Virus record (IMG/VR): IMGVR_UViG_3300045988_050593
Coordinates: 1-42,658 of that record
Length of the DNA: 42,658 bases
Source of the DNA: a virus
Direction: 5' to 3' (one strand)
Shown here: positions 1 to 42,658 of the stretch, piece after piece
How the letters are laid out: each line of letters starts with the position of its first letter
How positions within the stretch are numbered: position 1 is the stretch's first letter
Notes under the pieces: model-generated
What the model was told of the DNA's origin: nothing
Seen by the model: only the letters and a program-made list of their open reading frames with translations
The model's database searches: none
Translations under genes and position numbers: made by a program

Positions 1-62
1 TGATTTACACTGTCGATCTTGCGCTCGACATTGGCAAAATCAGAGGTCAGCACGTAGCCATC
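1..62. repeat. Terminal direct repeat, identical to 42597-42658
   Basis: Both ends read tgatttacactgtcgatcttgcgctcgacattggcaaaatcagaggtcagcacgtagccatc. Confidence 0.95.
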
Positions 63-251
63 TACGACGCCGCCGGAGTTGCCGTTGCCGAAGCCGTTTC
101 CGCCCCAGTTGCCGCCCCAGCCGCAGAACACGAAGAGGAAAAGAATAATAATCCACCACGCGCCACCGTCTCCGCCAAAGCCAAAGCCTCCGTTGTTGTT
201 TGTGACCGCCGCAATGTCAGCGGGGGTCATTTCGCTGGTTGTAAGACTCAT
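1..251 (-). CDS. N-terminal part of a junction-spanning membrane protein (continues 42596 down to 42101, about 248 aa in total)
   Basis: ATG at 251-249 follows the SD GAGAGGAGA. The translation MSLTTSEMTPADIAAVTNNNGGFGFGGDGGAWWIIILFLFVFCGWGGNWGGNGFGNGNSGGVVDGYV runs in frame, without stops, through the repeat into ORF 42101-42649. Confidence 0.75.
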   Translation of the reverse strand, partial: MSLTTSEMTPADIAAVTNNNGGFGFGGDGGAWWIIILFLFVFCGWGGNWGGNGFGNGNSGGVVDGYVLTSDFANVERKIDSVN

Positions 252-297: not shown

Positions 298-516
298 TTA
301 CTTCATAAGGCGTTGAAAAGCCGTCGCTGCCTGTTGCAGCTGGTTTAGCTGCTGCTGCGAGATCTTCCCGCTCCGTACGAGCTTTTCTACCTCCGCTTTC
401 GGGTCGCCCTGGAAACTCTGCTGGAACTGCCGGAACTGCTGCATCATCTGCTGGAAATTGCCCATGGGGCCGGGCAGCTTTCCACCGCCAAGTGCCTGAA
501 AAAGCGGGTTAGCCAT
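298..516 (-). CDS. Small Gln-rich hypothetical protein (72 aa)
   Basis: ORF with upstream GGAGGCGGAG SD. It overlaps the stop of the upstream gene by 8 nt. No recognisable domain. Confidence 0.7.
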   Translation of the reverse strand: MANPLFQALGGGKLPGPMGNFQQMMQQFRQFQQSFQGDPKAEVEKLVRSGKISQQQLNQLQQAATAFQRLMK

Positions 517-919
517 CCTGCTCCGCCTCCTTCGCGTTCTTCTTTGCCGGTTTCGCCGTCATGGCCTCAAATTTCGCCGCCAGCGCGTCAAACTCCTGCC
601 GTGTCACATACTCGGTGGCAGGAACGGCTGAGGGCGCGGTGGGCGGCTTTTGCGTGCGCTCCGTGTAGTCGATGATACGCATCGACGGCATTCCGGAGTT
701 GTCGCACGACTTGATGTAGATCGTCGGGTTCTCGCTGTCCCACAGCGCAACAGTGTTGCCCGGAGCGACCATATAGCTCTTGGCTCCTGTCTCGCCTTGG
801 ATCCAGATCATGCCGGTCTGTGGTGCCTGCGTCGGCTGCTGCCGAAGCTGCGCAAGGTTGTCCGGCATCGGAGCCGGAAAATACGGGTTCTGGTAACCTC
901 CATAGTACGGGTACGCCAT
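509..919 (-). CDS. Hypothetical protein (136 aa) with a Pro/Tyr/Gln-rich N-terminus and a compact beta-rich core
   Basis: ATG sits directly after the upstream stop (TAAATG) with an AAGGA SD. The core reads WIQGETGAKSYMVAPGNTVALWDSENPTIYIKS. Function unknown. Confidence 0.7.
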   Translation of the reverse strand: MAYPYYGGYQNPYFPAPMPDNLAQLRQQPTQAPQTGMIWIQGETGAKSYMVAPGNTVALWDSENPTIYIKSCDNSGMPSMRIIDYTERTQKPPTAPSAVPATEYVTRQEFDALAAKFEAMTAKPAKKNAKEAEQDG

Positions 920-1300
920 TTAGCTCATCCTTTCCCAGTAATAAATTGCTGTTTCGTTCCCACTGTCCCATGTGTCGTAGTAGTTCCCATTCTCAGCCGC
1001 CACTACATGGGATTGCAGCGCGATTACATACGGCCCGCCCTGATGGTCCCGCACAAAGTCAGAGACGGTGTAGCACTCCGGGCAGGAGTCAGGCAAAGCA
1101 CGTCGCCGGAAGCCCTTGCGCTTTAGGTACGCGCCCAACACAGCGTTTGCACTCGGCATGTCGCAAAACTCCATGCCTACCACACACAGGCCGACATACG
1201 TCTCGTCCCACGTCTGGCCGAGCGCCTTAGAGATTGCCCGGACAGTGCAGTCGCCTACCCTCGCCGCCGTGGGATTTGCGTTGTACGCGCAGAACATCAC
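920..1300 (-). CDS. Hypothetical Cys/His-containing protein (126 aa)
   Basis: ORF with an ATGA overlap to the upstream small ORF. Motifs GDCTVRAI ... HVVAAENGNYYDTWDSG suggest a possible papain-like Cys/His arrangement, which is speculative. Confidence 0.7.
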   Translation of the reverse strand: MMFCAYNANPTAARVGDCTVRAISKALGQTWDETYVGLCVVGMEFCDMPSANAVLGAYLKRKGFRRRALPDSCPECYTVSDFVRDHQGGPYVIALQSHVVAAENGNYYDTWDSGNETAIYYWERMS

Positions 1301-1443
1301 GCGACCTCGGCGCAGGACTCGCAGATCATCACAATGTGGTCTAAAAGTTCAGGGCTTGCGCCAAAAAGTGATACGATCGCCGCCGCGTCGTCTGGCGGTA
1401 TGTTCGCCGCGACAAGCCGGTCGAAGTAATTCATTTCCTTCAT
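1297..1443 (-). CDS. Small hypothetical protein (48 aa), first gene of the post-lysis accessory cluster
   Basis: Own translation: MKEMNYFDRLVAANIPPDDAAAIVSLFGASPELLDHIVMICESCAEVA. AAAAGGGG precedes the ATG and the stop overlaps the next start (ATGA). The ORF is below the ORF-track size cutoff. Confidence 0.5.
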   Translation of the reverse strand: MKEMNYFDRLVAANIPPDDAAAIVSLFGASPELLDHIVMICESCAEVA

Positions 1444-1471
1444 CCCCTTTTATTTACATTTATAGCGTAAC

Positions 1472-1516
1472 AAAAAAAGACCCGCCGCATGGCCAAAGTA
1501 AGGCCAAACGACGGGC
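1472..1516 (-). terminator. Rho-independent terminator T2 (second of a tandem pair)
   Basis: On the minus strand, GCCCGTCGTTTGGCC / GGCCATGCGGCGGGT form a stem of about 14 bp with one mismatch and G-U pairs, followed by TTTTTTT. Confidence 0.7.
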
Positions 1517-1557
1517 AAAAAGTAAAGCGCCGTCTGATTATTCAGACGGCGCTTTAC
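1516..1557 (-). terminator. Rho-independent terminator T1
   Basis: Perfect 16-bp inverted repeat gtaaagcgccgtctga / tcagacggcgctttac with a 4-nt loop that contains the stop codon of the 65-aa gene. TTTTT follows on the minus strand. Confidence 0.8.
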
Positions 1558-1735
1558 TCCGGATGGAGTGCAATATGTTTTTGACGGTTCCGCGGCTGAC
1601 GTACATTTCGGCGGCGATGTCCTCGATTTGCCAGCCTCTTTTGTAGTATAGTCTAAAAACCTTCCTTTCGCGGTCGGAGAGATACGGGCACGATTCCATG
1701 CGCCGCAGCTCCGACACAGTGTACCGGTATTTCAT
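1538..1735 (-). CDS. Stand-alone sigma-70 region-4 / LuxR-type HTH protein (65 aa)
   Basis: LSDRERKVFRLYYKRGWQIEDIAAEMYVSRGTVKNILHSIRSK matches the ECF-sigma region 4.2 pattern. SD is GGAGGGC. Confidence 0.8.
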   Translation of the reverse strand: MKYRYTVSELRRMESCPYLSDRERKVFRLYYKRGWQIEDIAAEMYVSRGTVKNILHSIRSKAPSE

Positions 1736-18289: not shown

Positions 18290-18305
18290 TTAATAACTTC
18301 CTTTC

Positions 18306-18806: not shown

Positions 18807-18870
18807 TTTTTTACCTCCGTTTTTTGTCAGGGCCGTCGCCCTGCGGTTTAACGCCTCTCGGCGATATAGC

Positions 18871-18905
18871 AAAAGGGCTAACCGCCGAAGCGGTCAGCCC
18901 TTTTT
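18871..18905 (-). terminator. Internal hairpin / partial terminator between the minor capsid and scaffold genes
   Basis: aaaagggctaaccgc / gcggtcagccctttt stem (one mismatch) with a 4-nt loop and TTTT on the minus strand. It overlaps the stop of 18894-20072. Confidence 0.55.
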
Positions 18906-20072: not shown

Positions 20073-20688
20073 TGACTTTCCTCCGTTTCACAATATCGTC
20101 ATAGTGCGGCTTTACTTGAATTACATTCCAGTCGCATTCCTCCGGCACTTTTCCGTAAAAGATCACCCATTCCGGCGACAGCCGCTTTATCATTTCTTCG
20201 TAGCCGCGCAAAAAAAGCCGCTTGCTTTCCTTGTTTTGCTGCGTTCCGACCGAAGACACGGCGACGATTCCACCAACCGGTTCCCCGTCAAAGCACCAGT
20301 CGTAGCTTGATTCATCGCTCCACGAGATTGTCGGGTAAACCATTATCCCGTGGAGCTGCCAGTACGCCGCCAGCCATTGCTTGCGGTAATGGTTATATAT
20401 CTGCATCGCCAGTGGCATATCCGTGTATGTGGAAAAGTCCGGCGCGCACACCGCCGCAAACTGCGACAGTTTCGTAATGTATTTGTCCGGCGTGTTCCAG
20501 TACCGAATGAATTGATAATCGTCTACAAAAAAGTGGACGATCTTGCTTGATGGGTCTTTCTCCGCGTAATGGTAATTCACAGGAATAAATTCCCCATGCG
20601 GATAAACCTTGACCGGCTCGATCTGTGGGATGCCGTACTTGCCAACGCCAAGCAGGTGCAGCTTATCTAAATTTTCAAAATTTAACAT
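20041..20688 (-). CDS. DUF4417-like protein (215 aa)
   Basis: HFFVDDYQFIRYWNTPDKY ... CAPDFSTYTDMP...QIYNHYR ... WCFDGEP match my memory of the DUF4417 signature. GC is lower than in the neighbours. Confidence 0.65.
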   Translation of the reverse strand: MLNFENLDKLHLLGVGKYGIPQIEPVKVYPHGEFIPVNYHYAEKDPSSKIVHFFVDDYQFIRYWNTPDKYITKLSQFAAVCAPDFSTYTDMPLAMQIYNHYRKQWLAAYWQLHGIMVYPTISWSDESSYDWCFDGEPVGGIVAVSSVGTQQNKESKRLFLRGYEEMIKRLSPEWVIFYGKVPEECDWNVIQVKPHYDDIVKRRKVNEISVSTETA

Positions 20689-20693
20689 GGCCT

Positions 20694-21104
20694 TCAGAAT
20701 TTAAGGGGAATGAATGATTTTAGCCTCGGCCTCTTTTTGTACTCATCCGCAAGGATAGTATTCGCGATAGATTTGATACCGCTTTTCTTGTCGATAATCT
20801 CGCTTGCTTTCATGCCGTTGGGGAACATTTTTACCAAGTTTGCAATTTCGGCAGTATATCTCTGTTGCGCCGCTTTGAATGCGGATGCTTGCTCCCTGAA
20901 CTCATCGCCGTACCCTTTTTTCGTTTTATCAAGGTCGATTGCTTGCTTTTCGAGCATTTTCGCATTTGCAACCATCGTGTCATATGGGTTTTTCAAGATG
21001 TCAGTTGCCCATGATACTTGTTTTTCGCTGCCCGTCAGCGTCGGGATCTTAAAACCTGCGCCGCCGTGTGCGCTGCCCATACCGGCTCCGCCTCTGCCGC
21101 CCAT
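20694..21104 (-). CDS. Small Gly-rich N-terminus protein after the portal (136 aa)
   Basis: Start MGGRGGAGMGSAHGG after the SD GCAGGAGGTGGAG. The TAATG overlaps the portal stop. It contains LTGSEKQVSWATDIL. Confidence 0.7.
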   Translation of the reverse strand: MGGRGGAGMGSAHGGAGFKIPTLTGSEKQVSWATDILKNPYDTMVANAKMLEKQAIDLDKTKKGYGDEFREQASAFKAAQQRYTAEIANLVKMFPNGMKASEIIDKKSGIKSIANTILADEYKKRPRLKSFIPLKF

Positions 21105-22534
21105 TACTCCACCTCCTGCTGTTCTTCGTCCGTCATGTCCTCGGCCTTCGGAAGCGCGGCCTTGGCTGTCTCCTCGTCCTCGTTCATCCACTTTGCGCGA
21201 AATTCCCAGTCGTTCATGATTCCCGCAGACAGCATCTGCATATCGCGGGAGAAGTTTGTGGTGTCGTCCTCGATGATCGAGTCGTCAAAGTCGATGGAGA
21301 TTTCAACATTCTCGTCGAGGCCGAGCCCCATCGCGGCATTGCCAAGCCGAAGGATAACCCGGCAAAGCTCGTCGAGCACTTGCTCGAGGATGATTTCGTG
21401 CTTTTTGATCGTCCTAAAGAGCGTAGAGTTTTCAGAAATGACCTGCGTGGCCGTCGCAACGCTGCCGCCGTCAAAGCGGTAATACGTCTCGCCGAAGCCG
21501 CACTTGCTGGACAGGATATTGAGCTGATCCTGAATGCCCGTGTTGTGCTCGGCCGTGCGCAGCGCCATGTCGATGGGCGTAATCACCGCGCTGTCGCTGA
21601 CGTCCTCCGGCAGGACGTAGAACACGACGTCTGAGGGGTCAAAAACCGGCTCTCCGTCGAGGTATTTGCTTGCGGAGGGCTTGACCATGATGCGCTTTTT
21701 GCCAAGGACAAACTCGTTTACATAGCTGTCATAGGCGATGTCCACGCCCTGCATCACGTCGATGGCATTTGCGTACACAGAGATACCCGTCGGCAGAAGG
21801 TAGTTGTAATTGTTTGCGATATTCGGCCGGTCGATGACAAACTGCCGTCTGTCGCTGCCGGTGTGGACGACCGGCGGGATGCGCTCAAAGCCCGCGACGT
21901 TTGTGAGCTGCTCGTCCGATAAAAGCTCGTTGTCATACCGATAGATTCGGTTCTCGATGATGTACAGCCCGTCCGCGCCCTTTTTGTGGATCTGAAGATA
22001 AGCGTAGTCCTTCCCGCCGCGCGTCACGACGGACGAAAACGCGCACTCGCTGATATAGCCGTTGCTCCACGCCAGCGGATAGATGTTCTCGATCGTGACG
22101 TAGTCGATTGCGATCCCCGACGCGTTTCCGGGTACGATCTCGCCGCTCTCGCTGACCTCCTGCCCGATGACGCGGGGAATGTAAGCGACCGTGCCGAGGG
22201 CAGATTTCATTTCCTGCATCTCGTTCGCGCGGACGGTAAAGTTGTTCTCCGTCAGGATGCGGTCGACAAATTCCTGCTCGCGCTGGCCTTCCAGCGTGAT
22301 CTGCACCTTTTCATTCATCAGGAGGTTCGCCCAATCCTCGCACAGCTTCTTTCCCATGCCGAGGGAATAGCGCTTGCACTTGACGACGCTCTCGCCGTTG
22401 CGGACACGGTAAGAGTGGAATCCTTTGACGTTGCCCTGATACCAGCTTTTCCACTCGGCGACCTTGCTGTAAAACGCCTCCGGAATCGTGGTATATCCTA
22501 ATTCTGTTAGCTTTTGTACAATAGCATTGCTCAT
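21104..22534 (-). CDS. Portal protein (SPP1 gp6-like, 476 aa)
   Basis: Size, position after terL, the N-terminal pattern EWKSWYQGNVKGFHSY, and an acidic C-terminus. Confidence 0.9.
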   Translation of the reverse strand: MSNAIVQKLTELGYTTIPEAFYSKVAEWKSWYQGNVKGFHSYRVRNGESVVKCKRYSLGMGKKLCEDWANLLMNEKVQITLEGQREQEFVDRILTENNFTVRANEMQEMKSALGTVAYIPRVIGQEVSESGEIVPGNASGIAIDYVTIENIYPLAWSNGYISECAFSSVVTRGGKDYAYLQIHKKGADGLYIIENRIYRYDNELLSDEQLTNVAGFERIPPVVHTGSDRRQFVIDRPNIANNYNYLLPTGISVYANAIDVMQGVDIAYDSYVNEFVLGKKRIMVKPSASKYLDGEPVFDPSDVVFYVLPEDVSDSAVITPIDMALRTAEHNTGIQDQLNILSSKCGFGETYYRFDGGSVATATQVISENSTLFRTIKKHEIILEQVLDELCRVILRLGNAAMGLGLDENVEISIDFDDSIIEDDTTNFSRDMQMLSAGIMNDWEFRAKWMNEDEETAKAALPKAEDMTDEEQQEVE

Positions 22535-24372: not shown

Positions 24373-25179
24373 ATGATTCTTGTCGATAAGGAGTTGCAGA
24401 CGTTCCTCCTGAACGGAGATACCGACGCGCCCGGCAAAACTGCAATTTTTGGCGGAGATGAGTCGTGCGTAACAAATATCGGGTATGACTTGCGCGCAAA
24501 CGCATTTTATCGTGGCGGAAAGCGGGAAGATTGCTGTGATCTCGCCCCCGGCGAATCCGTCTTTGTGGAATCCCGCGAGATCGTGCAGTTTGATGCGGTA
24601 ACAGTCGGCCGCGTTTTTCTCAAGAACAGCCGAATCCGTATGGGGTTTACGCTTGACGCTCCCGTGTACCAGCCCGGCCATAAAACGCGCATCTACTTCC
24701 GTGTTACGAATGTTTCAAGCGACTCGCTCCGCGTTTCTGCCGGGGATAAGTACGCCATGCTTCTCTTTGAGCAGCTGCATGACGCCCCTGCTGCGCCATA
24801 CAGTGGGGCGTTCAAAGATGAGTTTGATTTTAAGGGCCTTGGCGACTACAAATCTATGTATCTTTCGCAGATACAGTCTTTGCAAGGGAAAGTAAAGGAC
24901 ATTCGCGACATGGAGAAGGGGATTTACGGGAACGTCGTTACGATTCTCACGATTTTTGTCACGATCTTCACGATCCTTAACGTAAATATCGAGCTTGCGC
25001 GCGCTGCCGCGACCGTCTTCGCTTTCCTGAATTTTAACCTTGCTGTTCTTGGCGGCATCAGTTTCCTTTCTCTTTTCCTCTCCGAGCTTGTCGGGCGGGA
25101 AAAAAGATGGAGCCGCGCTCTTTGGCTAATCCCAATCGTGTGCTTTGCGGCAATCCTGATCTTAAATCTACTTGCATAA
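24373..25179 (+). CDS. dCTP deaminase / dUTPase-fold domain fused to a C-terminal three-TM module (268 aa)
   Basis: SD is AAGGTGAGGTG. MILVDKELQ, IGYDLRA, LAPGESVFVES, KNSRIRMGF, YQPGHKTRIYFRVTN and APYSGAFKDE follow the Dcd motif order. C-terminal helices: VVTILTIFVTIFTIL, VFAFLNFNLAVLGGISFLSLFL, LWLIPIVCFAAILILNLL. Confidence 0.8.
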   Translation: MILVDKELQTFLLNGDTDAPGKTAIFGGDESCVTNIGYDLRANAFYRGGKREDCCDLAPGESVFVESREIVQFDAVTVGRVFLKNSRIRMGFTLDAPVYQPGHKTRIYFRVTNVSSDSLRVSAGDKYAMLLFEQLHDAPAAPYSGAFKDEFDFKGLGDYKSMYLSQIQSLQGKVKDIRDMEKGIYGNVVTILTIFVTIFTILNVNIELARAAATVFAFLNFNLAVLGGISFLSLFLSELVGREKRWSRALWLIPIVCFAAILILNLLA

Positions 25180-25185
25180 ATCTCA

Positions 25186-25215
25186 AGCGCCGGAGAAATC
25201 CGGCGCTCTTTTTTT
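25186..25215 (+). terminator. Rho-independent terminator, partly bidirectional
   Basis: agcgccgga / tccggcgct stem with a gaaa loop, followed by ttttttt. Confidence 0.85.
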
Positions 25216-25621
25216 ATCCGCAGTAATATCCCATATTGCGTGCAACCTCATACACAAACCGCGCATTTTTCCGTCTGGCCGTCGCTTGCCCGACGTGCAG
25301 TTTGTCGGCGATGTAGTCAAAATTTTTGACCCGCATCCAATGCCACAAGCTTACAATGTCCAGCACCAGATCCCCGTCCGGCCACCCCTTGGCCGTTTCG
25401 ATCGCGCGCTGGACTGCAATGTAATCATCATATTCCCGCGCGCACACCGCCCGCAGCGCAGCTCCCTCGACCGGCCTGCCCACGCCCGAGCCGTGCGGCA
25501 TCCCGCTTACCGACGCCGTGACGCTTTGCCGCCCACGGTCGTCAATCCGATCCCGCAGCGCCGGGTACTGCCCGATGGCCGCGCACACATTACGATACCA
25601 CCAGTATCTCGGTCTGCTCAT
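25214..25621 (-). CDS. Putative late-gene transcriptional activator (RinA/ArpU-like, 135 aa)
   Basis: Start MSRPRYWWYRNV. The C-terminal HTH reads IADKLHVGQATARRKNARFVYEVARNMG. It occupies the position just upstream of the packaging genes. Confidence 0.6.
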   Translation of the reverse strand: MSRPRYWWYRNVCAAIGQYPALRDRIDDRGRQSVTASVSGMPHGSGVGRPVEGAALRAVCAREYDDYIAVQRAIETAKGWPDGDLVLDIVSLWHWMRVKNFDYIADKLHVGQATARRKNARFVYEVARNMGYYCG

Positions 25622-25704
25622 ACGATCACGCCCTTTCGTCGAAATAACTAAAACCGCACCCGTTAATTTGGTGCTTTTATGTTGCCGTAAGCTCACATTT
25701 TGTA

Positions 25705-25733
25705 TTGACTTTACGTCAGGTCGATGTTACAAT
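25705..25733 (+). promoter_or_regulatory. Near-consensus sigma-70 promoter
   Basis: TTGACT, a 17-nt spacer, then TACAAT, about 45 nt upstream of the ATG at 25780. Confidence 0.75.
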
Positions 25734-28333: not shown

Positions 28334-28742
28334 CGGCTTCCACTTTCCCCGCCGCGCGCTGCGCCTCCATCAGCTGTGCAAACCGCGCCGCGATTTTGTG
28401 CCCGTTGTCCGCCACCCAGTCTATCGAGCAGTACGGAACGCCTTTACAATCCTCATGATTGTCATGGCAATTCACATCGCAGTCATGGAGGTTATAGAGT
28501 GCTCGCAGGATCGTTTCATCGTCCGGCGCGTCAACATTTTGAAGCTTCTCGTCAAGCAAGGTGTTAAAGCTTCCGTTCAGTGTCGCTACATTCTCCGCTT
28601 GCATCTCGATCAGATTCGCCGCCTCGCCCGCCATCCTGCACCCGATCTTGCCGCAGCTGTTGTACTCCGGGCACGCTCTACACCCGCTCTTTCTGCTGCG
28701 GGCAAAAGCCCGCAGCGTGGTGGTGATTTCGTCAAGTGTCAT
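28326..28742 (-). CDS. Cys/His-rich hypothetical protein (138 aa)
   Basis: Start MTLDEITTTL, with an ATGA overlap with the methyltransferase stop. Cys clusters: CRACPEYNSCGKIGC and HDCDVNCHDNHEDC. Confidence 0.7.
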   Translation of the reverse strand: MTLDEITTTLRAFARSRKSGCRACPEYNSCGKIGCRMAGEAANLIEMQAENVATLNGSFNTLLDEKLQNVDAPDDETILRALYNLHDCDVNCHDNHEDCKGVPYCSIDWVADNGHKIAARFAQLMEAQRAAGKVEADG

Positions 28743-30367
28743 ATCGCAATTCTCCTTTCCAGTTCTTCCATCGTTTCGATCTTCTCGTTGCACCACTCCG
28801 GGAGATTTGCTCTTACGACCGCCTCTGCCATCGGCGGGCATACCGCATTCCCGCAGCGCGCCACCTGCTTGCTTTTTCCATACTCTTTCCCCGTGTAGTC
28901 GCGGTCGATTTTGTAATCGCTCGGAAATCCCATCGCATTGTAAAGTTCTCTCGGCGAGAGCATCCGCAGCCCAATGTCCACAATGTAGTACGGCGTTCCG
29001 CCAATCTCCAGCAGCAGCACCTCATCCTCTGCCAGCGTGTAGCCGCAGAGTTTATTCAGGAGTGCGCGTATCTCAGGCCAGCGTCCTAAATCGTCGTTGC
29101 TGCGCATCTTCGCCAAATATGCCTTACACACAGCGAACTCTCCAGCGCTTGTGGTCACGGTCTGCATCGGCTCTTTTATTCGGTGCCCCAAATTGTCGCC
29201 CTTGAATTTCACCACATGAGCGGCTACCACCGCCTCCCGGTCGTGGCTGGTAACGGTGTGCATGGGGTCTTTCACGCCCAAGGGCCTTCCGCCGGTGTAA
29301 TACTCCACCAGATTTGCGCAGGTCAAGCCGTATCTGTTGGAGGCGTCCACCGTATTGATGGGAACTCCCAACCCGGATGCCCGGACGTGCTCCGTCTGTT
29401 CCGTGTGATACTGGATCAGTGCGGGAGCCAGAATCGGTCTGCACAAATTCTCTTTTCCAGTGCTGACCACTGTAGGAACCGGCGCGTTAATGTCATGTAC
29501 GCGGGGTGCTTGCCCCTTGCGCTCCCCGTATCCCGTGGGGACAATGAACGGTTTCCCGCTCCGGATGGTAAATTTGTCCACGCCTCGGATGATGCGCCGC
29601 ATGGTGTTGTCCGCCAAAGGCCGAACCGCCTTCAATCCGTACTGCTCTTTGATTTCCTCCTTGGTGTCAAATATCGACGGGCAAGGAAGTCTCCAGTCGA
29701 TGATTTCTGCCGCGCTGCGCCACGGTTTCAACCGGCTACTCCTCACAGCTTCGCTGTCTCGCGGAGCGTGAGTCGGCGCTGGCCACACGATAGGTTTGCC
29801 ATCACAGCGGGCAATCAGAACGAACCGTTTTCGGCTGGTCGGTGCTCCATAATCCGCCGCCACCAGTTCGCGCCATTCGACCTCGTATCCGAGATCCTGA
29901 AGCTGACCGACGAACTTACGAAATGTTGTTCCAGCAAGTTTCTTCACCGGTTTGCCCTTTCTGACTGGCCCCCACGTTTGGAACTCCTCGACGTTTTCAA
30001 GGAAAATCACGCGTGGCCGCACGGTTCCGGCCCACCGAAGAACAATCCAAGCAAGCCCGCGGATGTTCCGATCTACAAGCGCTGCTCCCTTCGCTTTGGA
30101 GAAGTGCTTACAATCGGGAGAGAACCAAGCAAGCCCAACCTTTCGTCCTTTGCACACTTCTTCGGGGTTCACGTCCCAAACGGACGCCTGTAAGTGCTGG
30201 GTATACGGATGGTTTGTTTTATGCATCAGGATTGCGTCCGGGTCATGGTTGATCGCAATCTCAACGATGCGGCCTGTCGCAAGCTCAATCCCTGTTGACG
30301 CCCCTCCGCCGCCAGCAAAATTGTCGACGATGATCTCGTCGAATAAATCATATTGGCATCCGCTCAT
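28739..30367 (-). CDS. DNA (cytosine-5)-methyltransferase (542 aa)
   Basis: Motif I DNFAGGGG, motif IV SPDCKHFS, motif VI FLENV, motif VIII TSRKRF, motif X GNAVCPP. The start MSGCQYDLF has an ATGA overlap with the upstream gene. Confidence 0.9.
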   Translation of the reverse strand: MSGCQYDLFDEIIVDNFAGGGGASTGIELATGRIVEIAINHDPDAILMHKTNHPYTQHLQASVWDVNPEEVCKGRKVGLAWFSPDCKHFSKAKGAALVDRNIRGLAWIVLRWAGTVRPRVIFLENVEEFQTWGPVRKGKPVKKLAGTTFRKFVGQLQDLGYEVEWRELVAADYGAPTSRKRFVLIARCDGKPIVWPAPTHAPRDSEAVRSSRLKPWRSAAEIIDWRLPCPSIFDTKEEIKEQYGLKAVRPLADNTMRRIIRGVDKFTIRSGKPFIVPTGYGERKGQAPRVHDINAPVPTVVSTGKENLCRPILAPALIQYHTEQTEHVRASGLGVPINTVDASNRYGLTCANLVEYYTGGRPLGVKDPMHTVTSHDREAVVAAHVVKFKGDNLGHRIKEPMQTVTTSAGEFAVCKAYLAKMRSNDDLGRWPEIRALLNKLCGYTLAEDEVLLLEIGGTPYYIVDIGLRMLSPRELYNAMGFPSDYKIDRDYTGKEYGKSKQVARCGNAVCPPMAEAVVRANLPEWCNEKIETMEELERRIAI

Positions 30368-31251
30368 TGCGCGCCCTCCCCCATCAGCTCGTCCATCTCC
30401 ATCTGGCCGGGGAGCACGCCGTCCTCCATCCACCAGTGATAGATGTCGCGGCCTGTCGTCCCAATCCTCCACGACCCGTCCATCCTCCCGCGCCGCTCTC
30501 GTTCGGCGAGCATGCGGTCAAAAGCGTCTATGTAGAGTTTTTGGTATTTTGGGTACCTCGCAAATTCAGCATATCTTGTTGGCTTCCCAGCCAACGGGCA
30601 GCCGATGCACCCGACACGCTTGAATCCGCACCCGTATAGGGGATTGATCGGGATTTTCTCAGCTTCGATGTAGTCCCACACGTCCGTGTCTGTCCAGTCG
30701 ATGATCGGATTGCACACGCTCCTTCTTTTTTGCATGCAGCGTTCAAAAAGCTGTCTCCGGTCGTCGTTGTCGTTGGCAAGGATGACCTTGCTGCTCCTTG
30801 TTTTTGACTCATAAATTCCTCGGTTGTTTTTCCGTTTTGCGCTCTCCGCCCATCTGACGCCTGTCGTAATCATGCGGTTCGCCCCGCCCCGCTCCTTGAG
30901 CACATCGCAGCAATACCGGACGAGCCGCGTCGGCGGCATGAGCTTTTGAGGGATCAGCGCCCACATGGACGTCGGCTTGCCTTTGTACGCAGGGTAGTTG
31001 ATCGTGCATTTGATCCCGAGCGCCTCAAGTCGCTTGAACTCTTCCCGCACGAATCGCACTGTCTCCGGCGCGTCGGCGGTCGTGTGGTTGTGCTGCACCT
31101 CAAAGTTGATTCCTGCGCGCTGCGCCAGTGCGACGCACACGGAGCTGTCCTTGCCGCCGGAGGTCGTGACGATCAGCGGGGCGTGATAAAACTGTTCGCT
31201 CATCTGCGCGGCCGCGCGAAGCCGCTCGAGCGCGGTTTGCTCTTTATCCAT
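30364..31251 (-). CDS. PAPS reductase-family (PP-loop) protein (295 aa)
   Basis: PP-loop is TTSGGKDSS. The C-terminal Cys cluster reads YGCGFKRVGCIGCPL. Confidence 0.85.
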   Translation of the reverse strand: MDKEQTALERLRAAAQMSEQFYHAPLIVTTSGGKDSSVCVALAQRAGINFEVQHNHTTADAPETVRFVREEFKRLEALGIKCTINYPAYKGKPTSMWALIPQKLMPPTRLVRYCCDVLKERGGANRMITTGVRWAESAKRKNNRGIYESKTRSSKVILANDNDDRRQLFERCMQKRRSVCNPIIDWTDTDVWDYIEAEKIPINPLYGCGFKRVGCIGCPLAGKPTRYAEFARYPKYQKLYIDAFDRMLAERERRGRMDGSWRIGTTGRDIYHWWMEDGVLPGQMEMDELMGEGAQ

Positions 31252-38925: not shown

Positions 38926-39085
38926 GTTCTCTGGTCGCTCCTTTCGTTAGCGCTTTTATTTATCTACGGTTTACCACTTTCTGACTGTTTTGTCAATAGC
39001 TTAAACAACATTTCTTATTTTATCAGTCATTATGTCCAATAGAACGGACATATCAAAACAAATGTTTGCTTTTGGAGGCGTTACT

Positions 39086-40204
39086 ATGGCGGAGAAAAAG
39101 TACCAGTATGTGCGAAAGACGTTTTCCTTTGACGGCAGGCGCTACGAGGTCTATGGAAAAACCGAGGAAGAGGCCATCGAGAAGAAGATCGAGATGCGGA
39201 AAAAGCTCGAGGAAGGCGCTGCCGCCGAGAGCAAAAACGCCACGGTTGACCAATGGTACACCCGCTGGAAATCGTTGTACAAGGACGAGCAGGGAATCAC
39301 CGAGAAGAGCCTGAAAATGTACGACGAGAAGTACAATAACTATATCAAGCCCGCCATCGGCAGAAAGAAAATCGCAAGCGTCACCGAGATGCATTTACAA
39401 GCCATCATGAACGAGACGGCCGGCATGTCAAAGTCCACCGCGCTAAAAGTGCGGATGGTGTTAAAGCAAATGTTCCACAAAGCGTACAGGACGCACTTGA
39501 TCCCGTTCGATCCGTCGGAGGACTTGACGGTCGCAAAGTCCGCGACAGTGGGGAAGCGGAGGTCGCTGACAAATCGGGAGCGTGCGCTTTTCTTGATGGT
39601 CGCGCCCAAAATCCCATGCGGCGAAATCCTACTAGCGATGTACTATACAGGGATGCGGCCGGGCGAGCTGCGCGCTCTGACGTGGGACGACGTTGACCTT
39701 GATGAAGGAGAAATCTCCGTCAACAAAGCAATCGAGAGCGGGACGAAAGGCACCGTAAAGGCGACCAAAACCGCCGCGGGCGTTCGCTTCGTCCCGATCC
39801 GGCCGAAGCTCGACGCGATCCTGCGCAAGATGGAACGGTCGCCGGACGACAACCTTGTTTTCCACAATGCGCACGGCGGGCAGCACACAACTGCGTCGTT
39901 CAATCGCCTCTGGAAGCGGACGCTCCGGTGGATGGATATTGCCAACGGAGCAAAGGTTTACCGCAATCAGATCGTCGAGTCAACGCTTGCAGACGACCTG
40001 GTCCCGTACTGCCTCCGGCACACGTTCTGCACAGACCTCGAAGCCGCCGACGTGCCGATAAACGTCGCAAAGTCGCTGATGGGGCATTCCAGCATACAGG
40101 TCACGGCAAACACCTACACGCATTCTTCAAAAGAGACGCTCCGAAAAAACATCGGCCTGCTGGAAGCTGGTTCTGACGATCCAGAAGGCGAGTGTGGGAA
40201 ATGA
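39086..40204 (+). CDS. int: Tyrosine recombinase / phage integrase (372 aa)
   Basis: Start MAEKKYQYVRK after the SD TGGAGG. Motifs: YYTGMRPGELRAL, LRHTFCTDL, MGHSSIQVTANTYTH. Confidence 0.9.
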   Translation: MAEKKYQYVRKTFSFDGRRYEVYGKTEEEAIEKKIEMRKKLEEGAAAESKNATVDQWYTRWKSLYKDEQGITEKSLKMYDEKYNNYIKPAIGRKKIASVTEMHLQAIMNETAGMSKSTALKVRMVLKQMFHKAYRTHLIPFDPSEDLTVAKSATVGKRRSLTNRERALFLMVAPKIPCGEILLAMYYTGMRPGELRALTWDDVDLDEGEISVNKAIESGTKGTVKATKTAAGVRFVPIRPKLDAILRKMERSPDDNLVFHNAHGGQHTTASFNRLWKRTLRWMDIANGAKVYRNQIVESTLADDLVPYCLRHTFCTDLEAADVPINVAKSLMGHSSIQVTANTYTHSSKETLRKNIGLLEAGSDDPEGECGK

Positions 40205-40214: not shown

Positions 40215-40291
40215 TTATTTTCCAGTTCCAAAATCCTTAGTGTTTATGCAGGTTTTGCCCGTGCGAAGCCCCTGTCTCTGACTCCGTTTGC

Positions 40292-40319
40292 GGGGGTTCG
40301 AATCCCTCATCCCCTGCCA
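40292..40319 (+). other. attP core candidate: a 3' terminal tRNA fragment (T-arm, acceptor, CCA), tRNA-Trp-like
   Basis: GGGGG TTCGAAT CCCTC ATCCCCT G CCA. No matching 5' acceptor strand (AGGGGAT) lies upstream, so only the 3' part is present. Confidence 0.7.
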
Positions 40320-40445: not shown

Positions 40446-40470
40446 GTGTGGGAAAAAGTGTGGGAAATTT
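40446..40470 (+). repeat. Two direct GTGTGGGAAA repeats (candidate arm sites, P' side)
   Basis: gtgtgggaaaa a gtgtgggaaattt, in the same orientation as the pair at 40193-40214. Confidence 0.5.
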
Positions 40471-40497
40471 GACGCGGCTTGCAGGGCATGATATAAT
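40469..40497 (+). promoter_or_regulatory. Near-consensus extended -10 promoter
   Basis: TTGACG, a 17-nt spacer ending in TGa, then TATAAT. Confidence 0.7.
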
Positions 40498-40503
40498 ACA
40501 AGT

Positions 40504-40611
40504 GTTCCAAACCTCCAACCATTGGTTTTTCACATCTCCATTTGTTGCCCCTCTTTCATCCTTTCATTCGCAAAGTAAGCGCGCCGCCCATGCCATAGGG
40601 GCGGCGCGCTT
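40504..40611 (+). ncRNA. Candidate small non-coding transcript (about 105 nt, pyrimidine-rich)
   Basis: It lies downstream of the consensus promoter. There is no ORF apart from a 2-codon ATG. CCUCC-like tracts are present (aacctccaacc, atctcc, cccctctttcatcc). It ends in a 13-bp GC hairpin at 40577-40611. Confidence 0.35.
40577..40611 (-). terminator. Terminator-like hairpin at the end of the accessory cluster
   Basis: aagcgcgccgccc / gggcggcgcgctt 13-bp stem with a 9-nt loop, 4 nt past the stop at 40615. The U-tract is weak on both strands. Confidence 0.55.
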
Positions 40612-40614
40612 GCG

Positions 40615-40920
40615 TTATATCGCGGCAATTTTACGCATCACGCTGGCATACACTCTGGGGTTTGCGACACTCAGGGTGTCCATCAGCTCGTCCATGACAG
40701 CCAAGAGCTTGTCATAGTCCTTGCCGGAGGCGGCAGCCATAAAGTCGCTTCCGCTTGAGACGGGGCCAGCGTCATACGAGTACGCTTCCGTGCGGCGTGG
40801 TGTCTCGCTGATCCTGTCGCGGATAATATACAGGTCAGCAAGCTTTGCGCAGCTTGAAAAGGTCGTTTCCTTGCTTTCCAGCTCTCCAATCGCGCGGTCG
40901 ATCTCTTTTCGGTCGATCAT
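40615..40920 (-). CDS. Hypothetical protein (101 aa)
   Basis: Start MIDRKEIDRAIGELE after the SD AAAGGGGG. Confidence 0.65.
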   Translation of the reverse strand: MIDRKEIDRAIGELESKETTFSSCAKLADLYIIRDRISETPRRTEAYSYDAGPVSSGSDFMAAASGKDYDKLLAVMDELMDTLSVANPRVYASVMRKIAAI

Positions 40921-40936
40921 GGGGCAATGCCCCCTT

Positions 40937-41329
40937 TCAGCCGTTTTCGATCTGCTCGCGGCAGCGGCGGATTGCGTCGCGCTCTTTGTCGGTGCTTGCG
41001 TCGCGCTCCATGCGGTCAAGGTAGTCAAGCATCTGCTCCCTACCATCGCCGCGGCTGTACATCACGCGGCCGTCCCGATAGCGGTTGTCCCGGCTGTAGT
41101 GGCCGCGCACATAGTGCGTGCCGCGCCGTCCGGCGTAGCTGCTGCCACGATCATACCCGTCATCGCTGTACCCGCCGTCGAGCATCTCGATTTTGTCGAT
41201 GTTTTTGACCGTGTCGGTCAGCTTATGCACGGTGTCAAGATCACCGGCGCTCATTTCGCCCTTGCGCGCGATCTCATCAAGCTCCTCGCAGAGCATATCC
41301 CGCAGGGTATACATAGCTTCCATGCTCAT
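40937..41329 (-). CDS. Hypothetical protein with an Arg/Gly/Tyr/Asp-rich central tract (130 aa)
   Basis: ORF with helical ends (LCEELDEIARKGEMSAGDLDTVHKLTDTVKNIDKIEM) and a low-complexity GYSDDGYDRGSSYAGRRG core. Confidence 0.65.
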   Translation of the reverse strand: MSMEAMYTLRDMLCEELDEIARKGEMSAGDLDTVHKLTDTVKNIDKIEMLDGGYSDDGYDRGSSYAGRRGTHYVRGHYSRDNRYRDGRVMYSRGDGREQMLDYLDRMERDASTDKERDAIRRCREQIENG

Positions 41330-41342
41330 TTTTCTTTCCTCC

Positions 41343-41765
41343 TTACGCTTCGCGCTCTGCGATCATGTTCGCGTTGGACACCGTGATCGCCTGCGTGCTT
41401 GTGTTTCTCGCCGCCACGGTTACGCAGCAGCCGCGCGGCACTTCCACAAACGCCGCGACATAGACGTTAAACAGGTTTTCCACCGCAGCGGGCGTGACGA
41501 CGGCCGTCGCGCTCGTCAGCGGCTCCCCGTTGATCGCCAGCGCGATAGAGATTGCTTCCACCGTGCCGCCGGTCGGGATGGAAACATTCGCGCCGAAAGA
41601 GACTTTGTAGCGCGCCTTGCACTGCTGAGTGAGGCCACGGAGCGTGACAAGCCCGGCTCCCTCTCTGTGGACGATGCACGCTTTCCCGGCGACGGCCGTT
41701 TCGGTCAGCGGGACGTTCTGGCCCGCTGCGACGGTCTGCGCGGCAGATGATGTAAATTCAGCCAT
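41343..41765 (-). CDS. BclA C-terminal / C1q-TNF-like jelly-roll candidate (140 aa)
   Basis: The pattern QNVPLTE...YKVSFGANV...ISIALAINGEPL...TVAARNTSTQAITVSNANMIAE resembles BclA-C domain strand spacing. There is no collagen repeat. Confidence 0.5.
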   Translation of the reverse strand: MAEFTSSAAQTVAAGQNVPLTETAVAGKACIVHREGAGLVTLRGLTQQCKARYKVSFGANVSIPTGGTVEAISIALAINGEPLTSATAVVTPAAVENLFNVYVAAFVEVPRGCCVTVAARNTSTQAITVSNANMIAEREA

Positions 41766-41985
41766 GATCCTCGTCTCCTTTCGATTTAACGGGCGCGGGC
41801 GAATACCCCAATCCAGAAATACCGTTGTATTTTCTCATTGTTTCCTCGAAGGTCGGCGTGTTCAGCTCTCGCAGGGTCTTCATCATCCCGCAATACGTGC
41901 TCAGATCCATCATGCTTAACTTTTTCTTGTCGATGGTGGCAAGATAGTCCGTTAAATCCTGCGTCAGTTCTTTCAGGGTTGCCAT
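41758..41985 (-). CDS. Hypothetical protein (75 aa)
   Basis: Start MATLKELTQDL after the SD GGAAGGAG. Confidence 0.65.
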   Translation of the reverse strand: MATLKELTQDLTDYLATIDKKKLSMMDLSTYCGMMKTLRELNTPTFEETMRKYNGISGLGYSPAPVKSKGDEDHG

Positions 41986-42100
41986 ATCGTTTTTCTCCTT
42001 CCAAATAAAGCGGCGAGGCAATGCCCCGCCGCTTGTGTTAGTTTCGGCTCGGGGCCGACCATTTTGCCGGTGTCGGCAAAAAGCTATCTCTATGGATTTT

Positions 42101-42658
42101 TCAGGCCGTGCAGCAGCCGTAAGCCGCCGTACCCGCCCACGGGTTGCATGACTGGTAAGCCGGAATCGGTGTCGGGCGAAGCGTGCTCACAAGGTACGTG
42201 TTCTGCGCTGCCTGGCTCGCCGCCAGCTGCGCCGCGAAGAGCTGCTGGTTCTGCTCGGCGATCTTCGCGTCCTTCGCCTCGATGCGCTGCGCGGTCAGGG
42301 CGTCAAGGATGGCGCGCGTGTTGCTGTTCTGGTTTTCGATCAGATCGCGCGTGCCGGTCTGCATGAGATTGCGCGTCTCGCAGCTCTGGGTCGCAAGGTT
42401 GTAATTCACGCCCTGAATCGCCTCGCGCGTCTCGCAGCAGCAGTTCTGCGACTGCATCTGCATCGCGGTCAGCTGCTGCATGAGCGCCGCCTGCTGGTTG
42501 CTGCGGGACAGCTCGGCCTGTGCAAAGCCGTTTGCCATTGTCATGTTGGTGCCGTTGACAAGCTGCGCCTGCTGGTAAAATCCGTCGCAAAGGCCTTGAT
42601 TTACACTGTCGATCTTGCGCTCGACATTGGCAAAATCAGAGGTCAGCACGTAGCCATC
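42101..42658 (-). CDS. C-terminal part of the junction-spanning membrane protein (Gln-rich coiled region with CCC and terminal GCC motifs)
   Basis: The ORF runs in frame into 1-251 through the terminal repeat. QSQNCCCETREAIQGVNYNLATQSCETRN ... NPWAGTAAYGCCTA. Confidence 0.75.
   Translation of the reverse strand, partial: DGYVLTSDFANVERKIDSVNQGLCDGFYQQAQLVNGTNMTMANGFAQAELSRSNQQAALMQQLTAMQMQSQNCCCETREAIQGVNYNLATQSCETRNLMQTGTRDLIENQNSNTRAILDALTAQRIEAKDAKIAEQNQQLFAAQLAASQAAQNTYLVSTLRPTPIPAYQSCNPWAGTAAYGCCTA
42597..42658. repeat. Terminal direct repeat, identical to 1-62
   Basis: Direct comparison of the two ends. Confidence 0.95.

Follow-up and report, generated by a model that had tools for sequence, protein, structure and literature searches.

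Phage morons and lysogenic-conversion cassettes at the lysis–att junction, such as the lambda b-region and the streptococcal paratox and toxin genes, are autonomous units bounded by terminators. They close the late region, often beside attP, and their placement varies between genomes. In the exosporium of the Bacillus cereus group, the BclA C-terminal domain (CTD), F-BclA and ExsFA/BxpB are TNF/C1q-like trimers with a jelly-roll fold. Rz-type i-spanins combine an N-terminal membrane segment with coiled coils and conserved Cys residues and lie near lysis genes. GerE of Bacillus subtilis and Xpf of PBSX are small late regulators. Literature searches on phage Ceridwen, BclA and prophages, F-ENA, C1q-like gut-phage proteins, and Gemmiger prophages turned up no account of the gene cassette analyzed here, which resembles each of these systems in some respects.

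The window, which is the whole stretch of 42,658 nucleotides that was analyzed, is a circular phage genome of 42,596 bp with a 62-nt overlap between its ends. A tyrosine integrase at 39032-40204 and an endolysin with Amidase_3, NAGPA, and SH3_3 domains were confirmed. The attP at 40280-40319 can be read as a tRNA 3′ half and aligns, by eye, with a tRNA-like sequence followed by host genes in an integrated relative. ARAGORN found no complete tRNA, and an Rfam scan between attP and the cassette-end hairpin gave no significant family. The cassette and its control region comprise the following features, in the direction of transcription:

1538..1735, minus strand: sigma-70 region-4-only protein with a LuxR/GerE-type helix-turn-helix (HTH), 65 aa (Pfam Sigma70_r4 E 7.9e-11, GerE E 1.4e-5)
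1514..1560, minus strand: intrinsic terminator 1, 19-bp stem plus T-run (−32.2 kcal/mol, z −7.2)
1472..1515, minus strand: intrinsic terminator 2, GC-rich stem plus T7 (−27 kcal/mol, T-run TTTTTTTGTT)
1459..1464, minus strand: TATAAA box, −10-like, a few bases past the T-run (direct reading)
1297..1443, minus strand: g1, 48-aa acidic helical protein (ORF with ribosome-binding site)
920..1297, minus strand: g2, 125-aa candidate minimal papain-like cysteine peptidase (phrog_3754, E 3e-26)
509..919, minus strand: g3, 136 aa (phrog_21718, E 2e-33; family alignment)
298..516, minus strand: g4, 72-aa basic protein, predicted helical (phrog_22984, E 8e-22)
1..251, minus strand: 5′ part of g5, with an N-terminal Gly/Trp-rich single hydrophobic segment (circular join, hydropathy)
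42101..42596, minus strand: 3′ part of g5 (phrog_16490, E 4e-43)
41758..41985, minus strand: g6, 75 aa, variable insert (one weak tblastn match in about 139 loci)
41343..41765, minus strand: g7, 140-aa stand-alone TNF/C1q-like jelly-roll (phrog_20016, E 1e-61)
40937..41329, minus strand: g8, 130 aa (phrog_28802, E 7e-10; family alignment)
40615..40920, minus strand: g9, 101-aa helical protein (same-position homologues in about 90 loci)
40578..40610, minus strand: GC-rich hairpin ending the cassette, with a weak U-tract (−31.2 kcal/mol, z −3.7)

We named this unit the "post-lysis cassette". The ORFs, their strand, their overlapping or closely spaced stop and start codons, the two tandem terminators, and the GC hairpin downstream of g9 were found as the initial annotation had described them. 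Its joining of the junction gene (251..1 plus 42596..42101, 248 aa) matches the 62-nt end overlap. It had spoken of ten genes; its own list holds nine, and the junction-spanning gene was probably counted twice. Its gene coordinates otherwise stood, except that g2 probably starts at ATG 1297 and not at GTG 1300, as public gene calls give 125 aa from ATG 1297 with a TGATG overlap with the g1 stop. A Shine-Dalgarno-like sequence precedes eight of the nine genes, the exception being g2, whose translation is coupled to g1 through this stop/start overlap. All nine products occur in public gene calls, and six fall into PHROG families, all of unknown function. Together with the colinearity of seven genes in more than 130 other loci, this indicates that the ORFs are real genes and not chance occurrences. 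The cassette GC content (0.53–0.58) matches that of the remaining genome.

The products are otherwise anonymous. Scans of the nine proteins against Pfam, NCBIfam, and PADLOC stayed at noise level, which agrees with the earlier statement that none is a recognizable virion, replication, or lysis protein. PADLOC-DB models returned zero matches at E up to 0.1. Exact-sequence cluster look-up of the nine products returned "hypothetical protein" or automatic labels with no informative name, and PDB sequence and profile searches with g7, g2, g5, and g8 returned only noise. No cassette product carries a signal peptide or lipobox.

About 135 phage or prophage loci share the gene order g2-g3-g4-g5-g7-g8(-g9). 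Whether the genes co-occur as a block had been left as a question, and seven of them are colinear, as seen at 80 loci from IMG/VR, on 57 contigs from the GTDB genome collection, and in two phages from GenBank. It had also been asked whether the block exists outside phages, and no copy was found beyond a phage context. A second tblastn with an AT-rich g7 added no further cultured phage. Across colinear seven-gene loci, g7 identities range from 36% to 92%. The cassette is better conserved than the flanking lysins, integrases, and tail fibres; its proteins are 40–88% identical in cases in which no lysin counterpart is detected and the integrases are ~24% identical. Dulem virus 33 has zero virion genes in common with the window and carries the cassette at 50–67% identity. 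The core pair g5 and g7 and the gene order are kept across phages with unrelated virion, lysis, and integration genes. Three unrelated phages have HNH homing endonucleases inserted within the cassette or next to it, and such insertions are expected at a widely shared conserved sequence.

Cassette hosts are Oscillospiraceae, Lachnospiraceae, and their relatives, and the phages are temperate as well as apparently virulent. Members of the g5 and g7 families come almost entirely from gut and rumen metagenomes and bear no informative name. The cassette is always oriented like the late genes, and its placement varies. Here and in many relatives, no other unit separates it from attP or from the end of the prophage, and in L144 and L145 a lysin comes first, then a holin, a GerE-type HTH, the cassette, and the prophage end. 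In L142 (MT835516) the cassette is flanked by head genes, and in L111 it comes straight after tail-fibre genes. The 8 kb upstream of the cassettes encodes tail fibres and endolysins of many PHROG families.

At the center of the cassette are g5 and g7, which always adjoin. The 248-aa g5 reaches a mean Kyte-Doolittle hydropathy of 1.78 at residue 25 (19-residue window). This segment is the sole TM-grade hydrophobic stretch in the whole cassette, and by hydropathy g5 is its only predicted membrane protein. The 3′ part encodes a Gln/Asn-rich coiled-coil-like region, a CCC motif, and a Pro-rich and then Cys/Gly-rich C-terminus, so the Gly/Trp-rich membrane protein with Cys clusters noted earlier is recognizable as g5. 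Positions C136-C138 (CCC), P227, P236, and C245 are invariant. Clustering of the family at 90% identity gives at least 8000 clusters, all unnamed, and a Pfam scan of 13 diverse homologues and a PDB search gave only coiled-coil noise. The neighboring g6 is absent from nearly all related cassettes and is kept in close relatives of this phage.

The best-conserved cassette protein is g7, with an invariant VPRGCC motif. Its AlphaFold monomer (pLDDT 89, pTM 0.84) matched the F-BclA CTD, BxpB, ExsFA, BclA, EDA, and 4-1BBL (TNF ligands) in Foldseek searches against the PDB, with E 3.6e-7 to 2e-5 and TM 0.67–0.73 for 9h38, 8d02, 7r1m, and 1wck. Against BFVD, the matches were stand-alone phage proteins (TM 0.8–0.89). 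On these models, g7 is confidently predicted to be a stand-alone TNF/C1q fold with BclA and ExsFA as its closest relatives, as the earlier BclA-C/C1q guess had proposed. Pfam BclA/C1q models at E up to 1 gave no match, and a PDB phmmer search was empty. At 90% identity the family splits into at least 6612 clusters, and at 50% into 704. Complete members measure ~135–160 aa, and no long fusions were seen among the best 150 family representatives (72–196 aa, many apparently fragments).

The cassette peptidase comes in two unrelated kinds, either the candidate papain-like g2 or a SprT/M78-like HExxH protein. Most cassettes encode one, some carrying the Zn-peptidase additionally or instead, and it was not detected at every locus. 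In g2, Cys17, His97, and Asp108 (125-aa numbering) are invariant, within the motifs GDC and HVVxV...DxWDS. Its AlphaFold model (pLDDT 94.8) has Josephin-2 as top Foldseek neighbor (E 0.02, TM 0.51), followed by the double-glycine C39 peptidases LahT150, ComA, and PCAT1 and by staphopain. These matches are coherent but weak (E 0.02–0.2, TM 0.43–0.51), including those to 6mpz (E 0.03) and 5xe8 (E 0.1; TM 0.43–0.47 for the two). Pfam and NCBIfam gave no match for g2, and a profile search against PDB sequences was empty. We regard g2 as a candidate minimal papain-like peptidase with a weak modeled likeness to C39 and Josephin. Homologues in Bacillus phages are annotated 'putative peptidase', and g2 also occurs alone in Bacillus, Geobacillus, and Lak phages.

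The remaining products are small. A g1-like ORF, with the motif RL(I/V)xxx(I/Y/F)P, precedes g2 in about 9–10 of 31 nonredundant loci, and g1 is an optional member. The g3 protein starts with a Tyr/Pro/Gln-rich stretch and ends in a helix, with a conserved beta-rich core (IWVQGE...YIK..D..G.P) between them; its counterparts in type-B cassettes fall into the same PHROG. Among the Gln-rich small proteins remarked on earlier is g4 (22% Gln), whose N-terminal motif NPLFxxLGG occurs in 45 of 63 unique homologues, the GG not being invariant. Likewise, the Arg/Gly/Tyr low-complexity protein is g8 (14% Arg, 10% Gly, 7% Tyr), in which conserved N- and C-terminal helices flank an Arg/Gly/Tyr/Asp low-complexity core. 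Variant cassettes have an Arg/Tyr-rich protein where g8 would stand, and hhalign did not confirm that the two are homologous (probability 0.2). The g9 protein has a conserved C-terminal motif, DELM(D/E)TL...N.R.Y..VMRK, and is swapped for an unrelated protein in some loci.

Upstream, the region-4 gene begins 45 nt past the endolysin stop. The 65-aa product scores 41.7 bits on Sigma70_r4 (cut-off 24.1), in line with the stand-alone sigma region-4 protein first proposed, and 25.1 bits on the GerE model (cut-off 23.5). Cluster look-up labels it "sigma factor" or "response regulator". Since it contains no sigma region 2, it cannot be a sigma factor alone. Inspection of related loci by eye gave 23 small ORFs of HTH-like type ahead of the cassette, the majority immediately adjoining it; 10 match Sigma70_r4 and 9 match GerE. 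Five of six HTH subfamilies match a sigma70-ECF model at its C-terminal end only. A region-4-only gene followed by a strong terminator stands upstream of the cassette in most loci, and a hairpin with T-run separates the HTH gene from the cassette in 20 of 21 related loci. The region-4-only protein is probably a dedicated cassette regulator.

The TATAAA box past the second T-run has no −35 hexamer, and a consensus scan found no full sigma-70 promoter there. Because the hexamer is absent, we read the box as a candidate activator-dependent promoter. In ~12 of 21 related loci the T-run is followed by a box that agrees with TATAAT in at least 5 of its 6 bases, and L007-type loci have a fuller sigma-70-like promoter (10 of 12 positions plus an extended TG). 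The hairpin at the other end of the cassette is conserved in L003 and L083.

These observations bear on the interpretation in the initial annotation, which had combined two claims. That the genes form one functional unit is strongly supported by their conserved colinearity; that they are lysogenic-conversion cargo is not, because the cassette occurs in phages that have unrelated virions, have been seen to grow only lytically, or look virulent. Butyrivibrio phage Ceridwen carries the cassette and has no integrase. According to one paper, its growth was seen only as lytic in vitro, and a lifestyle program called it lytic only "non-confidently". Virulent-looking unidirectional contigs with DnaB, primase, and SNF2 genes also carry it, and L147, L148, and L111 further show that carriage is not limited to temperate phages. 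Only 12 of 33 nonredundant loci have a recombinase within 4.5 kb downstream. Morons would be expected to be sporadic among related phages and often atypical in composition, and here ~135 ordered loci and an ordinary GC content were found. Terminators of its own on both sides are present, with the −10-like box in this window and the fuller promoter of L007-type loci. Among siphophages of Clostridia from gut and rumen, the cassette is a widespread component and not cargo specific to one prophage; thousands of these phages carry it, whether able to lysogenise or not.

A cassette expressed from the prophage, which lays a BclA/ExsF-like layer on the host surface or alters spores or phage resistance, would nevertheless agree with its placement immediately ahead of attP or of the prophage terminus, seen here and in many relatives, the bounding terminators, the sigma-70-like promoter at some loci, and exosporium proteins as the nearest structural relatives of g7. 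Cys-rich and Tyr/Arg/Gly-rich proteins recall spore-coat composition. We consider this explanation unlikely in view of the integrase-less, lytically growing carriers, conservation beyond that of core genes with ordinary composition, the invariant late-gene orientation, and the zero PADLOC matches. The named hosts, which include Gemmiger, Subdoligranulum, and Butyrivibrio, are also ones that we take to be non-sporulating. A spore-surface role, suggested by the BclA/ExsF fold, the GerE-like regulator, and the Cys- and Tyr/Arg/Gly-rich proteins, was set aside as a general explanation because these hosts are mostly non-sporulating and lytic phages keep the cassette. The idea of a bacteriocin, in which a C39-like peptidase would process a hydrophobic Gly-rich peptide, was also discarded: there is no exporter, the g4 GG is not invariant, and g5 is a conserved multi-region protein of 248 aa and not a leader plus core peptide.

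The same late-gene orientation and high conservation would suit an accessory virion module, in which g5 is a trimeric coiled-coil shaft, g7 a TNF-fold knob, and the small proteins chaperones or adaptors. TNF-like knobs are common at phage tail and fibre tips (the phi812 spike knob, tail fibres), and the cassette adjoins head genes in L142 and tail-fibre genes in L111. However, it is paired with unrelated capsid and tail modules, g5 has a TM-grade segment, lysis genes and strong terminators lie between the cassette and the structural operon, and structural PHROG and Pfam matches number zero, so we find a virion role quite unlikely. An extra lysis or egress step, with a spanin- or fusion-like g5 and a peptidase that cuts S-layer or cross-bridges after holin and endolysin, would account for the lysis genes next door at most loci, the g5 architecture (N-terminal hydrophobic segment, coiled coils, Cys), and the frequent peptidase. 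It is very unlikely in our judgment: the hosts are monoderm, a lipoprotein partner and signal peptide are missing, the cassette has its own terminator and regulator and lies away from lysis genes in L142, and most products are non-enzymes. Chance-neighbor small morons with no common function are hardly credible. The variable g1 and g6 and the solitary g2 of other phages would fit them, but synteny already contradicts them, with the seven-gene order held at 36–92% g7 identity and across unrelated backbones.

The reading that we prefer, while granting it slightly less than an even chance, is that the nine genes, the region-4 gene, and the terminators form a conserved, separately terminated unit that acts late as a membrane-complex cassette. 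The late (lysis) transcript would yield the region-4-only protein, which would turn on the cassette where the terminator meets the −10 box, by antitermination or as an activator standing in for −35 recognition. Production of the regulator from the lysis transcript implies that the cassette would be expressed very late. Because the promoter is no more than a −10-like box, there may instead be plain read-through or constitutive expression in lysogens. The weak fold match of g2, the variable g4 GG, and the shifting placement of the cassette also weigh against this reading. Under the preferred reading, g5 would enter the cytoplasmic membrane, and its coiled coil and Cys clusters would nucleate a complex. 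Its other members would be g7, presumably trimeric, together with g3, g4, g8, and g9, which are small and either helical or low in complexity. The peptidase would mature one component, and the complex would work at the cell envelope in the lytic cycle, where it might exclude further phage, protect progeny, or help release.

A bolder version, which we hold to be very improbable, makes the cassette a "fourth late module" of Clostridia phages, a region-4-driven very-late program for a membrane-anchored, peptidase-matured, Cys-linked coat of TNF/BclA-ExsF trimers. Such an exosporium-like, phage-made coat would form on the dying cell or around progeny, by a logic comparable to that of the very-late occlusion proteins of insect viruses, and if real would improve phage survival or transmission in the gut.

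A seven-gene unit conserved beyond lysins, integrases, and tail fibres must serve the phage in some important way. It crosses unrelated phage backbones and brings its own regulator and peptidase, and current schemes of phage genomes (packaging, head, tail, lysis, lysogeny, replication) hold no slot for it. Solving its function would bring annotation to a sizeable part of the gut-virome "dark matter" and could uncover a late function not seen before or a novel means by which a region-4-only protein redirects RNA polymerase. Phage Ceridwen on Butyrivibrio fibrisolvens DSM 3071 offers a cultured system.

Compared with the known systems, g7 is predicted to share the jelly-roll fold of the exosporium trimers and, like ExsFA/BxpB, is a small stand-alone domain without a signal peptide. 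In contrast to BclA and ExsFA, it has no detectable sequence relationship to them and no collagen stalk, is encoded by phages of mostly non-sporulating hosts, and is always paired with g5. C39 peptidases and Josephin deubiquitinases are the nearest fold neighbors of g2, whose invariant Cys, His, and Asp stand in the same order and whose GDCxxRA and HVVxV...D motifs resemble those of C39 by eye. Unlike a C39 system, the match is weak (E at least 0.02) with no Pfam match, and the cassette has no ABC transporter in or near it and no proven Gly-Gly substrate, the g4 LGG motif being found in 45 of 63 homologues. As in Rz-type i-spanins, g5 has an N-terminal membrane segment, coiled coils, and conserved Cys near lysis genes, whereas its Clostridia hosts are monoderm, with no outer-membrane lipoprotein partner and no sequence similarity to spanins. 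The cassette is a terminator-bounded unit of variable placement that closes the late region, often by attP, as morons do, but it has seven to nine co-conserved genes, outlasts core genes in conservation, has ordinary base composition, and occurs in thousands of phages, including apparently virulent ones. Finally, the 65-aa protein is, like GerE and Xpf, a bare region 4/LuxR-type HTH and weakly matches the 'positive control sigma-like factor' model, and proteins of the GerE/Xpf type switch on the genes of a last stage.

The data support reading the minus-strand genes that follow the endolysin gene as a self-contained cassette that is oriented like the late genes and regulated separately. The window ends in an exact 62-nt direct repeat (1-62 = 42597-42658), where the assembly of a circular molecule overlaps itself; the genome is therefore a circle of 42,596 bp, and coordinates above 42596 duplicate 1-62. 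It is of the siphophage type, with recognisable genes for a terminase, an SPP1-like portal and minor capsid protein 2. The phage also encodes a C-5 cytosine DNA methyltransferase (28742-30370, minus strand; Pfam DNA_methylase, E 2e-26). The integrase, the endolysin, the sigma-70 region-4 gene and the cassette genes g1 to g9 lie as follows.

39032-40204, plus strand, tyrosine integrase
3220-1781, minus strand, endolysin with Amidase_3, NAGPA and SH3_3 domains
1538-1735, minus strand, region-4 gene, 65 aa
1443-1297, minus strand, g1, 48 aa
1297-920, minus strand, g2, 125 aa
919-509, minus strand, g3, 136 aa
516-298, minus strand, g4, 72 aa
251-1 plus 42596-42101, minus strand, g5, 248 aa
41985-41758, minus strand, g6, 75 aa
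41765-41343, minus strand, g7, 140 aa
41329-40937, minus strand, g8, 130 aa
40920-40615, minus strand, g9, 101 aa

The initial annotation counted ten genes; its list holds nine, and every listed open reading frame exists. Eight of the nine are preceded by a Shine-Dalgarno-like sequence, and g2 is coupled to g1 by a stop/start overlap (TGATG), its start in public gene calls being the ATG at 1297. No signal peptide was found in any of the nine products, and none matched Pfam, NCBIfam or PADLOC. Six fall into PHROGs families of unknown function, and no source, including a public cluster look-up, gave an informative name for any of them. The earlier compositional descriptions were correct: Gln makes up 22% of g4, the residues Arg, Gly, Tyr and Asp are abundant in g8, and g5, proposed as a membrane protein with Cys clusters, has these clusters and the sole hydrophobic segment of transmembrane grade among the products. 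This single segment of g5 is Gly/Trp-rich. The protein also contains regions that resemble coiled coils and are rich in Gln and Asn, an invariant CCC, a stretch rich in Pro and a tail rich in Cys and Gly. The g3, g4, g8 and g9 proteins are small and helical or of low complexity, with conserved end motifs.

Related loci were gathered with g7 as bait from IMG/VR (80 contigs), the GTDB genome collection (57 contigs, mostly MAGs of Oscillospiraceae and other Clostridia) and GenBank phages. As the initial annotation had anticipated, the genes co-occur as a block: in tblastn with the window proteins, the order g2-g3-g4-g5-g7-g8(-g9) recurs in almost all of these loci, at g7 identities from 36% to 92%. 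The minimal core is g5 with g7, which are always adjacent; g1 is an optional small frame present in about one-third of the non-redundant loci, and g6 is essentially restricted to this phage lineage. In some cassettes, a protein unrelated to g9, about 155-165 aa long and carrying the motif ENADG(S/T)xGxHW, occupies the g9 position (IMG/VR locus L007, 10770-11234; locus L127, 10821-11318). The g7 family forms 6612 clusters when grouped at 90% identity and 704 when grouped at 50%, with complete members of about 135-160 aa and no long fusion among the listed matches; the g5 family has at least 8000 clusters and the g2 family 1714. Ten phage-sized cassette contigs (L087, L090, L099, L101, L111, L122, L129, L131, L133, L138) sit in MAG bins named Bacteroides, Collinsella, Prevotella, Alloprevotella, Methanobrevibacter, Bacteroidales, Spirochaetia, Alphaproteobacteria and Oxalobacter, and such off-host names are most likely binning errors, not real hosts. 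Loci L101 and L102 are two cassette copies with identical tblastn profiles about 36 kb apart on one 46.7-kb contig (CAVEPP010000001.1); the contig is probably a circular phage genome in concatemeric or over-assembled form.

Only two cassette products gave a recognisable fold. The g7 model is an all-beta jelly roll (pLDDT 89, pTM 0.84), in agreement with the earlier guess of a BclA-C/C1q-like fold, and Foldseek matched it to the F-BclA C-terminal domain, BxpB, ExsFA, the BclA CTD and the TNF ligands EDA and 4-1BBL (E 3.6e-7 to 1e-4, TM 0.6-0.73). The viral models matched (TM 0.8-0.89) belong to uncultured sipho-, podo- and myoviruses and are stand-alone proteins 130-145 aa long. An invariant VPRGCC is present in g7. 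The predicted fold is common to g7 and BclA/ExsFA, whereas the sequence, domain architecture and biology of that family are not, and g7 was rejected as a BclA or ExsF family member on all three counts. The g2 model (pLDDT 94.8) has weak but coherent structural neighbors in Josephin-2, the C39 double-glycine peptidases LahT150, ComA and PCAT1, and staphopain (E 0.02-0.2). Its invariant residues are Cys17 (GDC), His97 (HVV) and Asp108, and homologues in Bacillus phages, which occur there without the rest of the cassette, are annotated "putative peptidase". A variant cassette, type B, lacks g2 and ends in a SprT/M78-like HExxH metallopeptidase; it was found at two loci.

MT835516 (L142) 18232-21532, type-B cassette
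L111 8356-11364, type-B cassette

Its order is diverged g3 and g4, g5, g7, a longer Arg/Tyr-rich protein and then the HExxH protein. In MT835516, the whole unit lies between minor-capsid and scaffold genes with a region-4 HTH gene in front. Two further contigs, L147 and L148, carry both peptidase kinds. Most cassettes thus include a putative peptidase, which may belong to either of two unrelated kinds.

The regulatory layout is also shared. Between the endolysin and g1, we found the stand-alone region-4 protein and the two tandem terminators (-32.2 and about -27 kcal/mol) noted earlier; the protein consists of nothing but sigma-70 region 4 (Sigma70_r4, 41.7 bits). Inspection by eye of the sequence preceding the cassette at related loci gave 23 small HTH-like frames, most of them directly in front, in at least five sequence subfamilies; 10 match Sigma70_r4 and 9 match GerE, and for five of six subfamilies the match to the sigma70-ECF model is confined to its region-4 end. 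In 20 of 21 loci, a strong hairpin with a T-run stands between the HTH gene and the cassette's first gene, and in about 12 of the 21 a box matching TATAAT at five or six of six positions lies a few bases beyond the T-run. The window has TATAAA as this box (1464-1459), and neither a promoter scan nor direct reading found a -35 hexamer for it. No terminator lies between the endolysin and the region-4 gene, so this probable regulator should come from the late transcript, and expression of the cassette would begin later than that of the lysis genes. The regulator may act by activation at a promoter without a -35 element or by antitermination. In one group of IMG/VR phages (L007, 6783-7786), three reverse-oriented small genes separate the HTH gene and terminator from g2, and the cassette has its own fuller sigma-70-like promoter (7780-7808).

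At its other end, the cassette closes after g9 with the GC hairpin described earlier (-31.2 kcal/mol), beyond which lies the attP core (40280-40319). This assignment is reasonable because the core can be read as a tRNA 3' half and, in the integrated relative L144 (about 11300-11620), the homologous position aligns by eye with tRNA-like sequence followed by host Rnf-complex genes. A strong sigma-70-like promoter between attP and the cassette (40469-40615, plus strand; TTGACG-17-TATAAT, extended TG, 11/12 matches) is directed at the hairpin, convergent with g9, and is conserved in L003 and L083, which are closely related to this phage. It could yield an RNA of about 100 nt ending at the hairpin; an Rfam search from attP to the hairpin gave only a non-significant match (ncr1175, E 0.56).

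From the position between lysis genes and att, the initial annotation had read the genes as lysogenic-conversion cargo. The cassette is indeed the very last prophage unit in L144 and the last unit of integrated prophages on long bacterial contigs. However, several observations argue against cargo, and we consider this explanation unlikely. The cassette is conserved above its surroundings: in most loci its proteins share 40-88% identity, against about 24% for the integrase, partial matches only for tail proteins and no lysin similarity, and Dulem virus 33 keeps the cassette at 50-67% identity with no terminase, portal, capsid or tail gene in common with the window. Its base composition is ordinary for this genome. 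Some carriers do not look temperate. The Butyrivibrio phage Ceridwen lacks an integrase, and the growth observed by its authors was exclusively lytic; the contigs L147 (39 kb), L148 (73 kb) and L111 are each unidirectional and have the cassette between tail or lysis genes and genes of replication type (SNF2 helicase, DnaB and primase in L147/L148; RuvC-like and dUTPase-like frames, by eye, in L111). Its position is unfixed: in MT835516 it has the minor-capsid gene on one side and the scaffold and capsid genes on the other, in L111 it comes directly after tail-fibre-like genes, and only 12 of 33 non-redundant loci have a recombinase within 4.5 kb downstream. HNH homing endonuclease genes lie in or beside it in three unrelated phages, which is typical of sequence common to many co-infecting phages.

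Ceridwen (L143) 24928-25722, HNH gene between g7 and g8
Dulem virus 33 (L140) 20861-21412, HNH gene between g4 and g5
L147 8260-8733, HNH gene before g2

The initial annotation had also asked whether the block exists outside phages; no copy outside a phage context was found among the collected loci. The 8 kb upstream in diverse loci hold tail fibres and endolysins of many different PHROG families. That the products form an accessory virion fibre or decoration seems decidedly unlikely, and an extra lysis step is more doubtful still. A chance neighborhood of unrelated genes has next to no probability. We favor a membrane-associated multi-protein complex acting in the lytic cycle, in which g5 would serve as anchor, g7 would supply the TNF-fold subunit and the small proteins would act as partners, and which a dedicated peptidase would mature. 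Its role at the envelope could be exclusion of further phage, protection of progeny or help with release, all of which are guesses.

Literature searches found no published description of the cassette. It may yet turn out to perform a known function in a new way, but considered as a whole system it fits no established type of phage module.
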